A stretch of 4,050 nt of DNA from Dictyostelium discoideum (GCA_000004695.1 CH709152.1:1-4050); one strand, 5' to 3'. Shown: positions 97-3,900, counted from the stretch's first letter. The notes: generated by a model not told the origin, from the sequence alone. A program made the numbers and translations.

Positions 97-273
97 ATGC
101 CCAAAATTACCATATTAATTTCAGCAGCCATATTAATTTCAGCCTAAAATAGTTGGTCTGTGCATGCCAAAATTAATATGGCTGCTGAAATTAATATGGT
201 AATTCTAGCAGACATAAGTCCCATGCCAAAATTACCATATTAATTTCAGCAGCCATATTAATTTTGGCATGGG
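97..273. repeat. Cluster of three copies (A, B, C) of a ~40-55 bp palindromic element arranged direct / inverted / direct. A is a 35-bp perfect inverted repeat with B, and B is a 42-bp perfect inverted repeat with C. C is itself a palindrome with 13-bp arms.
   Basis: A at 101-139 (ccaaaattaccatattaatttcagcagccatattaattt) is identical to C at 226-264. B at 163-205 (catgccaaaattaatatggctgctgaaattaatatggtaatt) is the exact reverse complement of C at 230-271. C at 219-273 reads tcccatgccaaaatta|ccatattaatttcagcagccatat|taattttggcatggg, with perfectly complementary arms catgccaaaatta and taattttggcatg. The core contains a direct duplication ccatattaatttcagc / agccatattaatttcagc. Confidence 0.85.
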
Positions 274-697
274 ACACACACTACTACTATGATTCAACCA
301 AATCAATATTCAACATTTAAATTAGAATTAATAGTATTAAAACAAGAATTTTCATTAATGTTCATTAAATTTAGAACGTAGTTTGAAATCATAGAATCAT
401 GACCCAACCACTGACTAGTAGTTTAAATCCATTCTCAAGTAATCATTCCAAATTATCACCACCAGCACCAAATGCAACATCAACTACAACATCAAATCAG
501 CAGCATCTCAATCGAAACAATTGCAGCTCATGAATCAATTCTTACTCTTCAAATCTAGCCAGTAAATGGTATCTCTGAAAATGAGACAAAATCTCAACAA
601 GCCACCCCAGAGAATTAGATTAGAGCTCTGAAGTTGATTGATGCAACCCATTGTTATCACAGGTGGTAAATCTGTAACAATATTTTCAACCATATGG

Positions 698-862
698 TTA
701 ATATGAATAAATTTTATTATCTATAATTAAAGGTTGTTGATTTAATCTATCGTTATTATTAAATTTATCTATTGATAAATCTAGTAGTATATCTCTTATC
801 TCGTCTAATCTTTTTTTTGCAGTTTTTTGTGAAATTTTAAAAATAAATGATAAATTATCCAT
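698..862 (-). CDS. Candidate small ORF of 54 aa: MDNLSFIFKISQKTAKKRLDEIRDILLDLSIDKFNNNDRLNQQPLIIDNKIYSY. It is speculative.
   Basis: Hand translation of the minus strand from the ATG at 862..860 to the TAA at 700..698. An in-frame stop lies 18 codons upstream. The sequence is protein-like rather than homopolymeric. The ORF is below the 60-aa cut-off of the supplied track. No homology or expression evidence is available. Confidence 0.15.
   Translation of the reverse strand: MDNLSFIFKISQKTAKKRLDEIRDILLDLSIDKFNNNDRLNQQPLIIDNKIYSY

Positions 863-1196: not shown

Positions 1197-1235
<39 letters not shown>
1197..1235. repeat. T39 homopolymer, extendable to about 1240 with one interruption.
   Basis: Direct read of 39 consecutive T, then a, then tttt. 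Confidence 0.95.
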
Positions 1236-1237
<2 letters not shown>

Positions 1238-1380
1238 TTTTCTTTAATTTTACTGGCAATTAATATCTATCACACCACCAAAAAAAATACCCCATAATTT
1301 ACATTCCTTTTAAAAAATTATGTAAAATGTATGTAAATTCATATTATTTTTTGAGTAGTTTTTTAATTTTTTAAGTTGTC

Positions 1381-1614: not shown

Positions 1615-3597
1615 ATGTCAACAAAAAAAAAAATTAAAACAGATAATAATAATAAAATATTTCAAGATTTTATTGATTTTGAAATTTTAAGATCTTTAAT
1701 CAATTATTTATTAATCAACAAAACAAATAATAATAATAATAATAATAATAAATATAAAATTAGTAAATTTTATTTACATAGAAATGAAATATTGAATTAT
1801 ATATTAGTTTCAAAAAAGTGGTATAATTTTATATCATTAACAATATCAAATAATATTATTAATAATAAATCATTTGAACATTGGTTAAAAATTAATAATA
1901 ATAATAATAATAAATCATTTACTAAAAATTATAATAATCAAAATCGATATGATAAAAATAATTTAATTTTTAATAACAAATATAGTAAAAATAAAATTGG
2001 TTTTAATAAAGAATTTTCAATTATAAAAATCAAAGAATCAATAATCAAAGATTATTTTAAATTCAATTTATTTTTAAGTAATATTACAATTGATGATTTT
2101 AAAGAAATTAAAAATAAATTTGAAAATAATCAATTAGTTTATAATAGAATTGTTGTTGATATTAAAACTGGCTATTATGGTGAAGGGAATCAAGATGAAA
2201 TTTTATTTAAAATACATGAATATGTATCAAATGAAAATTCAGAAATCATATCAAATTTATTTAAAATATTAGAATTAAATCATGATTTTATGATAATCGA
2301 TGACTTTCATCCAAAATCTAAAGAAGAGGATGAAGAGGATGAGGAGGATGATGAAAATGATAAAGGTAGTAAGAAATGTACTGAAATATATTTAAATAAT
2401 TTATTGGTTTCCGGTTATGATCTAACTATGGATGAGGATGAAGATAGAGAATCATTAAAGATATTCAAAATATTTAAAAGTAAAAATATATTTTATGATG
2501 GGTCTGGTATTGCTAGTGATATTCCAACACATGTCAATTATTCAGCATTGTTTGATCCTGATAATTCAGGTCAACAAGTTGAATCGATTAAAGTAAAAAA
2601 TGAACTTGAAGATCCTGATTTTGTAGAACCACTCCATTTAATCAAAGTTAATCAATTTAAAAATTTACATTCAATTACAATACCAATTAATTCATTTCAA
2701 ATATTATCAAACTTATCCGAAGAAATGGGATATTTTAGTATCGATTGTTTTAAATCTGGTTTTGGTCTTTCAGATAATATGAAATCAGAATTAAATCAAA
2801 TGATCAATTCATTCATTACAAGTAAATCTTTAAAAAATTTAAAAATAACATCTATTAGTACAAAAGAAGATCCAATTGATTATGATGCTTATTATGATGA
2901 AGGTGATCTTCAAACTTTTATGAATCAAATAAATGAACCTAAAGAATCATTTTCAAATTGTTTCAAACCATTATTTTCAGAATTAAATACATCAATTGAA
3001 AGAATTGAATTTGATTGTTGCGGTTTATTAAATATCAATACATTTTCAAATTTATTAAATAATAAATCAATTAAATATTTATATTTATATGATAGTGATT
3101 TCTTTTTTTCTTCATTAAAAACAAGTGATGGTGGTAGTGATGATTGTGGTATTGATGATGATGGTGGTAGTGATGATTGTGGTATTGATGATGATGGTGG
3201 TAGTGATGATTGTGATGCATATCAAAAAATTATTTCCATTAATCAATATCTATTTGAAAATATATTTTCATCACCATTAACATCAATTAGACATTACAGA
3301 ATTAAATTCAAAGAATTAGATGAATTAAAATTCATATTTAATTTAATATTAAATAATATTTTTAAATTACAATTATATTCATTAATATTTGAATTCAATG
3401 AAAACGAATTAGTTTATGAATTTGTTAAAGAATTTAAAAATTTAATAAATAATATTTCAATACAAGAACAACAACAACAACAACAAAAATCAAACAACAT
3501 AAATTTAAAAGAAATTAAAATTATAATAAATGATGACTGTTTAGAAGAATTAAATAATCCATATTTCAAAACAACAATAAAGAATAGCCCATATTAA
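1615..3597 (+). CDS. Asn/Gln/acidic-rich protein, 660 aa, single exon. It has an F-box-like N-terminus and loosely leucine-rich-repeat-like C-terminal segments. The product is tentative.
   Basis: Uninterrupted 1983-nt ORF in an otherwise stop-dense, AT-rich window. The start sits in an A-rich context (aataataataATGtca), which is typical of Dictyostelium. Codon usage is host-like (aat, caa, tta, aga, ggt, gat). The N-terminus, 'FEILRSLINYLL ... EILNYILVSKKWYNFIS', resembles the F-box consensus (LPxEIL..I...L ... LVCKRWxxLI), split here by an (N)8 tract. The C-terminal segments 'IERIEFDCCGLLNINTFSNLL' and 'FKNLHSITIPINSFQILSNL' have LxxLxLxxC/N-like spacing. It ends in TAA, followed by an A34 tract. 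Confidence 0.8.
   Translation: MSTKKKIKTDNNNKIFQDFIDFEILRSLINYLLINKTNNNNNNNNKYKISKFYLHRNEILNYILVSKKWYNFISLTISNNIINNKSFEHWLKINNNNNNKSFTKNYNNQNRYDKNNLIFNNKYSKNKIGFNKEFSIIKIKESIIKDYFKFNLFLSNITIDDFKEIKNKFENNQLVYNRIVVDIKTGYYGEGNQDEILFKIHEYVSNENSEIISNLFKILELNHDFMIIDDFHPKSKEEDEEDEEDDENDKGSKKCTEIYLNNLLVSGYDLTMDEDEDRESLKIFKIFKSKNIFYDGSGIASDIPTHVNYSALFDPDNSGQQVESIKVKNELEDPDFVEPLHLIKVNQFKNLHSITIPINSFQILSNLSEEMGYFSIDCFKSGFGLSDNMKSELNQMINSFITSKSLKNLKITSISTKEDPIDYDAYYDEGDLQTFMNQINEPKESFSNCFKPLFSELNTSIERIEFDCCGLLNINTFSNLLNNKSIKYLYLYDSDFFFSSLKTSDGGSDDCGIDDDGGSDDCGIDDDGGSDDCDAYQKIISINQYLFENIFSSPLTSIRHYRIKFKELDELKFIFNLILNNIFKLQLYSLIFEFNENELVYEFVKEFKNLINNISIQEQQQQQQKSNNINLKEIKIIINDDCLEELNNPYFKTTIKNSPY
1654..1842 (+). 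other. F-box-like motif region within the CDS, aa 14-76, interrupted by a poly-Asn insertion.
   Basis: aa 22-33 'FEILRSLINYLL' and aa 58-75 'EILNYILVSKKWYNFISL' match the two halves of the F-box consensus. Between them lies 'INKTNNNNNNNNKYKISKFYLHRN'. The VSKKW motif is recurrent in Dictyostelium F-box-like proteins. This rests on established knowledge of the family and no HMM search was possible. Confidence 0.4.
1726..1749 (+). repeat. (AAT)8 microsatellite in frame, encoding poly-Asn N38-N45.
   Basis: Direct read of aataataataataataataataat, in frame with the 1615 ORF. Confidence 0.9.
1894..1911 (+). repeat. (AAT)6 microsatellite in frame, encoding a second poly-Asn run.
   Basis: Direct read of attaataataataataataataaatca, translating as I N N N N N N K S. 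Confidence 0.9.
2323..2358 (+). repeat. Acidic tract EEDEEDEEDDEND, built from imperfect 9-bp gaagaggat-type repeats.
   Basis: gaagaggatgaagaggatgaggaggatgatgaaaatgat. The first two 9-mers are identical and the third differs by one base. Confidence 0.8.
3127..3216 (+). repeat. Perfect 33-bp tandem repeat, about 2.7 copies, in frame and encoding DGGSDDCGIDD three times.
   Basis: gatggtggtagtgatgattgtggtattgatgat occurs at 3127-3159 and again, identically, at 3160-3192. A third partial copy, gatggtggtagtgatgattgtgat, runs from 3193 to about 3216. The protein reads SDGGSDDCGIDDDGGSDDCGIDDDGGSDDCDAY. Confidence 0.95.
3463..3486 (+). repeat. CAA-repeat tract encoding QEQQQQQQ (short poly-Gln).
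   Basis: caagaacaacaacaacaacaacaa, in frame. Confidence 0.9.

Positions 3598-3611: not shown

Positions 3612-3645
<34 letters not shown>
3612..3645. repeat. A34 homopolymer immediately 3' of the gene's stop codon. It is encoded in the genome, not a cDNA tail.
   Basis: Direct read of 34 consecutive A starting 15 nt after the TAA. Confidence 0.95.
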
Positions 3646-3680: not shown

Positions 3681-3734
3681 ACAAATAATGTCAACAAATA
3701 AATTAAAAAACAGATAATAATAATACAATATTTT
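3681..3734 (+). pseudogene. Degenerate duplicate of the 5' end of the 1615 gene (leader plus first ~16 codons). It now reads ATG TCA ACA AAT AAA TTA AAA AAC AGA TAA, a 9-aa ORF.
   Basis: 3682-3734 (caaataATGtcaacaaataaattaaaaaacagataataataatacaatatttt) aligns to 1609-1670 (ataataATGtcaacaaaaaaaaaaattaaaacagataataataataaaatatttcaag). The blocks ataATGtcaacaaa, aaattaaaa and cagataataataata are shared, at roughly 85% identity. Weaker similarity extends upstream, where cttgtt...aacaaataa occurs both at 1540-1588 and at 3652-3687. Confidence 0.45.
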
Positions 3735-3839
3735 AAAATTTAATTTTTTTTTTTTTTTTTTTATATAAATAAATAATTTACCTTTTGATTTGGAAATATA
3801 ATTTATTTTATTTTGTTTGTTGTAGGGAATTTTCCATAA

Positions 3840-3900
3840 AATTTCACTACAGTAGCGTAGTGAATTTTATTATTTAATTTCACTACAGTAGCGTAGTGAA
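3840..3900. repeat. Two perfect copies of the 25-bp motif aatttcactacagtagcgtagtgaa, at 3840-3864 and 3876-3900 (period 36 bp). Each copy contains the dyad cactac-agtagc-gtagtg.
   Basis: Direct read. cactac and gtagtg are reverse complements, and ctac/gtag is nested inside. This is the only GC-containing island in an otherwise >85% AT intergenic stretch. Confidence 0.9.

Follow-up and report, generated by a model that had tools for sequence, protein, structure and literature searches.

Tandem repeats within a coding sequence may give a protein a new function, or may be tolerated copies of a stretch of DNA prone to slippage. Which of the two holds for the 33-bp repeat in a 4,050-nucleotide stretch of Dictyostelium discoideum DNA (the window), which is extremely AT-rich and has one long ORF? 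A preliminary description saw in this repeat a recently expanded, probably polymorphic series of calcium-binding loops within a putative F-box/LRR adaptor, and we have asked how far each part of that picture fits the sequence, its relatives and the predicted structure.

The repeat and its host gene

The ORF matches DDB_G0271418 of D. discoideum AX4 with 100% identity over 100% of its length, and besides the array it contains poly-Asn, poly-Gln and acidic tracts (Table 1). No Pfam family matched the whole 660-aa protein at E <= 10. In the literature searched, no paper turned up for DDB_G0271418 or the identifiers of six paralogs, and mir-7131 was mentioned neither there nor in an Amoebozoa miRNA preprint.

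Table 1. Features of the window, with positions counted from its first nucleotide
Feature	Position	Strand	Basis
Perfect 33-bp in-frame minisatellite	3126..3214	+	Tandem Repeats Finder; lag-33 scan
Hypervariable Gly/Asp/Ser-rich linker, predicted disordered	3121..3228 (residues 503-538)	+	pLDDT, family alignment
Host ORF, 660 aa, DDB_G0271418 (hypothetical protein)	1615..3597, stop codon included	+	ORF list, identity match
LRR-type beta/alpha solenoid (predicted), interrupted by several variable loops	2047..3594 (residues ~145-660)	+	Predicted structure
Possible degenerate F-box, split by Asn-rich insert	1654..1848 (residues ~14-78)	+	Weak Pfam matches, hhalign

Tandem Repeats Finder gave the array a period of 33, 2.7 copies, 100% matches, 0% indels and a score of 178, and an independent scan at lag 33 found an exact run of 56 bases from 3126, giving the same span. 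The two methods thus agree with the original observation that two full copies (3126-3158 and 3159-3191) and one partial copy (3192-3214) are 100% identical. The product is DGGSDDCGIDD twice, then DGGSDDC, in frame as had been claimed. The first span given for the array, 3127-3216, is its codon-aligned version (codons 505-534) and runs two bases beyond the exact match, since its last codon, 534, has GAT in place of the unit's GGT. With a unit of 33 bp, or 11 codons, repeated head-to-tail inside an intact ORF, the array is a coding minisatellite. ORFs on the minus strand and in the other frames over the array (His-rich, Ile/Thr-rich and Val/Met-rich) are by-products of the repeat.

Chance can be excluded as the origin of the array. 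The probability of such a match is about 10^-26 at a single position and lag, or about 10^-20 when corrected for positions and lags, and when the codons of the ORF were shuffled 200 times the longest exact in-frame run was on average 11.8 bases and never exceeded 19. The unit is built only from the codons GAT, GGT, AGT, TGT and ATT and has an internal sub-periodicity of 15 + 18 bp with 76-80% identity, so that the unit itself derives from a cryptically simple GAT/GGT tract.

The host family

DDB_G0271418 belongs to a large paralogous family, with 84 clusters of roughly 50-87% identity drawn from D. discoideum AX4 and the newly sequenced isolates, plus a few members with 27-32%. When a profile of 62 members was run against 1.84 billion representative proteins, only 58 matched at E <= 0.001, and the distant members came from D. 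citrinum, D. firmibasis, D. dimigraforme and D. purpureum. This places the family in group-4 Dictyostelium alone. Its members are arranged in tandem arrays, and by our own count of cluster names about 10 clusters are AX4-named and about 40 ACTFIW-named, a several-fold difference in apparent copy number between isolates.

The new assemblies appear to come from the work of Holland et al. 2025 (10.1101/2025.08.01.668227), who sequenced AX2-214 together with CR116C and OT3A, diverged isolates from the tropics, and M4B and S6B, which are cryptic sister species.

Age and alleles of the repeat

The closest relative of the host gene is ACTFIW_011103, with 92% nucleotide identity over the CDS. A G-patch gene lies about 10 kb downstream at both loci. 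The two loci cannot be aligned in their intergenic flanks, and the family is one of birth and death; ACTFIW_011103 is a candidate ortholog. At the repeat site it reads DGGSDDDGIDDD-DDEGGGNDA, one unit and a degenerate partial unit, with Asp where AX4 has Cys, and the site is 30 bp shorter. The perfect AX4 copies must therefore be much younger than the split from this relative (dS ~0.11), and the expansion is, as first proposed, recent.

A separate assembly, GCA_054883475.1, encodes an identical 660-aa protein with both full 33-mers and the same 2.7 copies; it is 99.75% identical to the window, with six substitutions and a 4-base change in poly-A length in 4 kb. Tandem repeats are a known cause of assembly error (PMC6868369), and the extra copies might be the product of a mis-assembled or mis-sequenced repetitive region. 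The recovery of the same array in this second assembly speaks against such an artefact, as do the length of the array, 89 bp, which one Sanger or long read exceeds, and an ORF that stays in frame throughout it, and we give the idea practically no credence.

GCA_054883475.1 is probably the sister laboratory strain AX2-214. As AX2-214 has NC4 ancestry in common with AX4, the assembly would not be an independent natural sample. No more than two allelic states can be seen, and one of these belongs to the diverged isolate ACTFIW. The predicted copy-number polymorphism of the array (a VNTR) is plausible.

Between DDB_G0271418 and ACTFIW_011103, dN is 0.039, dS 0.106 and dN/dS 0.37, with values of 0.24-0.57 for separate segments of the gene; these ratios point to purifying selection on the host gene outside the loop. 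A dN/dS of 1.1 for DDB_G0271424 and ACTFIW_011105 was discarded because the length of the second CDS is not divisible by three, probably owing to an intron, and the codon alignment is unreliable.

The loop that holds the repeat

In the family alignment the repeat is flanked by two of the protein's most conserved blocks, '...NKSIKYLYLYDSDFIVYSSK' and 'ISINQYLFDNIFSSPLTSIRH...'. Identity to the query is 3-22% in the loop between them compared with 91-98% in the blocks themselves, making the loop the least conserved stretch of the C-terminal half. In the predicted structure residues 503-532 have a pLDDT below 50 (40-46 in the loop) and no secondary structure, with strands at 495-501 and 535-541 on either side, and the loop is thus predicted to be disordered. 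Across the solenoid, length variability in the family anticorrelates with pLDDT (Spearman -0.69, p 2e-8), so the repeat sits in one of several indel-prone, disordered loops.

Measured from anchor to anchor in 76 family linkers, the linker is 17-83 residues long with a median of 29, and 50 in AX4; a value of 96 aa for P0024 was an anchor artefact, and the true maximum is the 83 aa of P0008. Gly makes up 20% of the variable part and Asp 18%. P0008 has two arrays of its own in this same loop, a Gly-Arg-rich one of period 9 (TGGTCGTGG x7.2) and an Asp/Gly-rich one of period 18 (x6.7). The array of P0007, with period 33 and 2.5 copies at 89% identity, has a Glu-rich unit (DDDGGEEEEEE-like) that differs from that of AX4, only the core GATGATGATGGTGGT being common to both. 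The loop has thus undergone separate expansions in other paralogs, the periods being 9, 18 and 33 bp. Tandem iteration had been called unusual in such a protein; the paralog arrays show it to be the normal behaviour of this tract.

The proposed calcium and redox character of the unit

The most specific proposal for the repeat was that each 11-residue unit is an Asp-rich calcium-binding loop of thrombospondin type-3 or EF-hand-like character, with a redox-active Cys, and that iteration tunes a metal-binding or redox-sensitive patch. The composition fits, as the unit is 45% Asp, and the spacing D-x-D-G-x-x-D-x-C occurs twice in the protein, at residues 514 and 525. However, this spacing is the preliminary description's own pattern, and the true thrombospondin type-3 core is two residues longer. 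That core (DxDxDGxxDxxDxC) has no match in the protein, nor have PROSITE PS00018 (even minus its last position), DxDxDG, [DN]x[DN]x[DN]G or the RTX pattern GGxGxD. A Pfam search of the repeat fragment at E <= 10 gave only LRR_6 at noise level (E 8.7), and neither EF-hand nor TSP_3.

The relatives do not preserve the features that such a function would need. The Cys of the unit is Asp in the closest relative; Cys is present in only 16/76 family linkers and missing from the other 60/76. When DGGSDDCGIDD was sought beyond DDB_G0271418 it was absent from every other of the 136 family proteins, and among four loci examined at the nucleotide level the 33-mer was found only in L001, twice, and in none of the other three. 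A search of a 5.8-billion-protein database with the 41-aa repeat peptide gave no match at E <= 10, a weak test in which the parent protein likewise went unrecovered.

Structure and location also argue against the proposal. The segment is predicted to be disordered and no helices flank it, leaving no helix-loop-helix. Thrombospondin type-3 repeats are extracellular and disulfide-bonded. The N-terminus of DDB_G0271418 (MSTKKKIKTDNNNK), read from the sequence, is polar and basic and has no signal-peptide-like hydrophobic stretch, which argues against an extracellular, disulfide-bonded module. Taken with the missing patterns and the non-conserved Cys, this makes a dedicated calcium or redox role very improbable. 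Polyacidic stretches can weakly bind divalent cations, and so highly acidic a loop could bind cations weakly and non-specifically, although none of the results indicates that it does.

Fold and candidate F-box

AlphaFold2 with the family alignment produced a model with a pTM of 0.69, in which short strands and helices alternate regularly from residue ~145 to the C-terminus, forming the curved strand/helix solenoid that characterises LRR proteins. A Foldseek search of the PDB placed LRR proteins in all of the top 22 positions, including the LRR domains of NLRP3, NLRP9 and NLRP5, CARMIL, SKP2, FBXL3, FBXL2 and FBXL17. The TM-scores were low, 0.2-0.3, as expected between solenoids of different curvature. 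At the sequence level no Pfam LRR family matched the whole protein at E <= 10, and none was among the families matched by the 62 members. On the strength of the model and its structural matches, we take DDB_G0271418 to be an LRR solenoid protein by predicted fold.

The F-box is less certain. On the N-terminal fragment, Pfam F-box and F-box-like models matched residues 53-74 at E 0.04-0.14, below the cut-off, and four distant paralogs had an equally weak F-box match at the homologous site (E 0.02-0.27). The scores were 11.7-15.2 bits against a cut-off of 20.5. F-box is the Pfam family matched by most members, with 9/62 at E <= 1, none of which reached the cut-off.

An F-box domain is about 45 residues long. 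As a reference we aligned five canonical F-boxes and then verified the alignment by search; it recovered FBXW7, SKP2, CDC4, beta-TrCP and TIR1 (1e-18 to 1e-21) as well as a large number of further F-box proteins. Against this reference hhalign gave the family N-terminal profile a probability of 62% over 19 columns, rising to 70% over 32 columns, covering helices 1-3, once the Asn-rich insert of 12-23 residues had been excised. Neither the unspliced nor the spliced profile had a significant F-box match among PDB sequences, SKP2 appearing only at E 0.85-1.5, and the AlphaFold2 model has low confidence in this region. These matches are suggestive and do not establish an N-terminal F-box. Of the 'putative F-box/LRR adaptor' first described, the LRR part stands on the fold and the Foldseek matches, and the F-box part comes down to sub-threshold Pfam matches and an hhalign probability of 62-70%. 

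Origin of the repeat

We consider that the repeat is a young expansion of a GAT/GGT tract, by replication slippage or unequal exchange, in a disordered, acidic, Gly/Asp-rich surface loop within one repeat of an LRR solenoid protein, where it is tolerated as part of a spacer; we put the probability of this reading at about 0.8. The ancestral state, as kept in the closest relative, is about one unit followed by the degenerate partial unit. The AX4 lineage then gained one or two further 33-bp units, which are still identical. Short direct GAT-GGT-GGT seeds about 11-14 codons apart could have promoted the misalignment. The loop, as a flexible spacer under very little constraint in length or sequence, would accommodate the extra 11-22 residues. 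The repeat itself would have no specific metal-binding or redox role, and the protein would rely on its conserved LRR surface for its function, which is possibly that of an SCF-type adaptor for substrates. The array is probably neutral.

That this loop has expanded repeatedly, in many paralogs, could instead reflect selection for loop diversity. Slippage would then generate variety in length and charge on a surface used for recognition in a rapidly expanding LRR (possibly F-box) family, and so diversify specificity for substrates or partners, for instance in roles tied to conflict, immunity or kin. The loop is different in nearly every one of the 76 paralogous linkers and has undergone several separate expansions, the family is group-4-restricted and tandemly arrayed with its several-fold difference in copy number between isolates, and the fold is similar to ligand-binding NLR-type and F-box LRR domains. 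However, the composition of the loop is plain low complexity (Gly/Asp/Ser/Asn/Glu), as expected of slippage without selection, and the predicted disordered segment lies on no identified binding face. The whole-gene dN/dS does not indicate positive selection, no expression or functional report was found in the literature searched for any family member, and D. discoideum coding repeats vary like non-coding ones (PMC3460934). Selection on the loop therefore seems to us unlikely. The bolder form of the idea, in which the repeat is one event in a minisatellite-driven diversification of a surface loop in an F-box-like LRR family, whose hypervariable loops would contribute to the partner specificity of ubiquitin-ligase adaptors with conflict, immunity or kin-related roles, is a speculation that we think has little chance of being right.

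The array matters little in itself, as another coding repeat in a genome well known for such repeats, and its possible use is as a strain-typing marker. The more interesting object is the host family, which is uncharacterised and has no Pfam domain, a predicted LRR fold and several indel-prone loops.

Comparison with known systems

The unit resembles thrombospondin type-3, EF-hand and DxDxDG loops in being Asp-rich with Gly, and here has one Cys per unit. It differs from thrombospondin type-3 repeats, whose cysteines are paired and conserved, in that this single Cys is not conserved and the protein has no secretory signal, and from both these and EF-hands in having neither their defining spacings nor a profile match.

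A second comparison is with the F-box/LRR adaptors of SCF ubiquitin ligases (SKP2, FBXL2, FBXL3, FBXL17, COI1 and TIR1). DDB_G0271418 differs from them in that all its Pfam F-box and LRR matches fall below threshold and its putative F-box is broken by the Asn-rich insert, and NLRP-type and axonemal LRR proteins match it as well or better.

The other coding repeats of D. discoideum, which are exceptionally abundant, variable and largely neutral-like (Scala et al. 2012, PMC3460934), offer a further comparison, one that transfers to the 33-bp array only by analogy because that study concerned long triplet microsatellites. Like them, the array is in frame and slippage-prone in an AT-rich genome; it differs in its 33-bp, 11-codon unit and in having only 2.7 copies.

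Tandem repeats in the host gene and its paralogs

The host gene, DDB_G0271418, belongs to an uncharacterised family with an LRR fold and without a Pfam domain, found solely in group-4 Dictyostelium. Two paralogs of its protein, P0007 and P0008, carry tandem arrays in the same Gly/Asp-rich loop as the AX4 33-bp repeat, and these arrays arose independently. The P0007 unit shares the period of the AX4 unit, but is Glu-rich and different from it.

The host ORF contains further in-frame simple repeats. In the order of the coordinates tabulated below, poly-Asn is encoded by (AAT)8.7 and (TAA)7, an acidic EED tract by 3.2 copies of GAAGAGGAT, and poly-Gln by an (ACA/CAA) tract. The EED tract likewise forms a loop that has low pLDDT in the predicted model and varies in length in the family alignment.

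Repeats and other features of the window, of the family locus L001 and of paralog loci (L003, L004)
Feature	Location	Details
Third copy of hairpin arm	window 101-139	
Near-perfect hairpin	window 160-275	RF03716 matched on both strands at 173-261
54-aa ORF	window 698-862	- strand; weak Pfam HTH_Tnp_4 match
T-rich run	window 1197-1245	49 bases, 91% T; upstream of host ORF
In-frame simple repeats, host ORF	window 1726-1751, 1893-1913, 2323-2351, 3462-3499	
Pure A run	window 3612-3645	34 bases; just past host ORF stop
Decayed copy of host ORF 5' end	window 3688-3751	80% identical; ATGTCAACAAA...AAAACAGATAATAATAATA
Exact 25-nt direct repeat	window 3840-3864, 3876-3900	AATTTCACTACAGTAGCGTAGTGAA
Retrotransposon integrase gene	L001 13206-16183	
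Inverted 25-nt repeat pair	L001 17444-17501	
P0008 loop arrays	L003 1755-1937	period 9 and period 18
P0007 loop array	L004 1796-1904	period 33

Sequences flanking the host gene

Very long homopolymer runs lie on both sides of the host ORF. The pure A run is shorter by 4 bases in a second, near-identical assembly (GCA_054883475.1), and this change in length is the only indel separating the two across the window. Directly after the poly-A tract comes the decayed sequence that duplicates the 5' end of the ORF; it is probably the remnant of an adjacent tandem paralog.

Further downstream, each copy of the 25-nt direct repeat folds as a hairpin with an 8-bp stem (TTCACTAC/GTAGTGAA). The pair is found again in inverted orientation about 5 kb further downstream, enclosed in a 233-bp block of 88% identity and adjoining the next family gene on its upstream side.

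The hairpin that lies about 1.35 kb upstream of the host ORF has about 42 bp in its stem, with an energy of -70.1 kcal/mol and a z of -15. It matches the mir-7131 microRNA precursor (Rfam RF03716) with 98.9 bits, where the gathering score is 74. Directly upstream, its arm occurs a third time. The hairpin may represent a miRNA locus or, alternatively, a MITE-like inverted repeat. Between it and the host gene, the 54-aa ORF matches the helix-turn-helix of DDE transposases (HTH_Tnp_4) with an E-value of 0.013 and 15.5 bits, below the cut-off of 27; it may be a transposon relic.

Arrangement and copy number of the family

The family genes are tandemly arrayed (L001 and L002), with a retrotransposon integrase gene interspersed among them in L001. 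Counting the rows of the family match list by name, we found about 10 clusters for AX4, about 40 for isolate proteins prefixed ACTFIW and about 18 for those prefixed ACTFIR, which suggests that isolates differ widely in family copy number.
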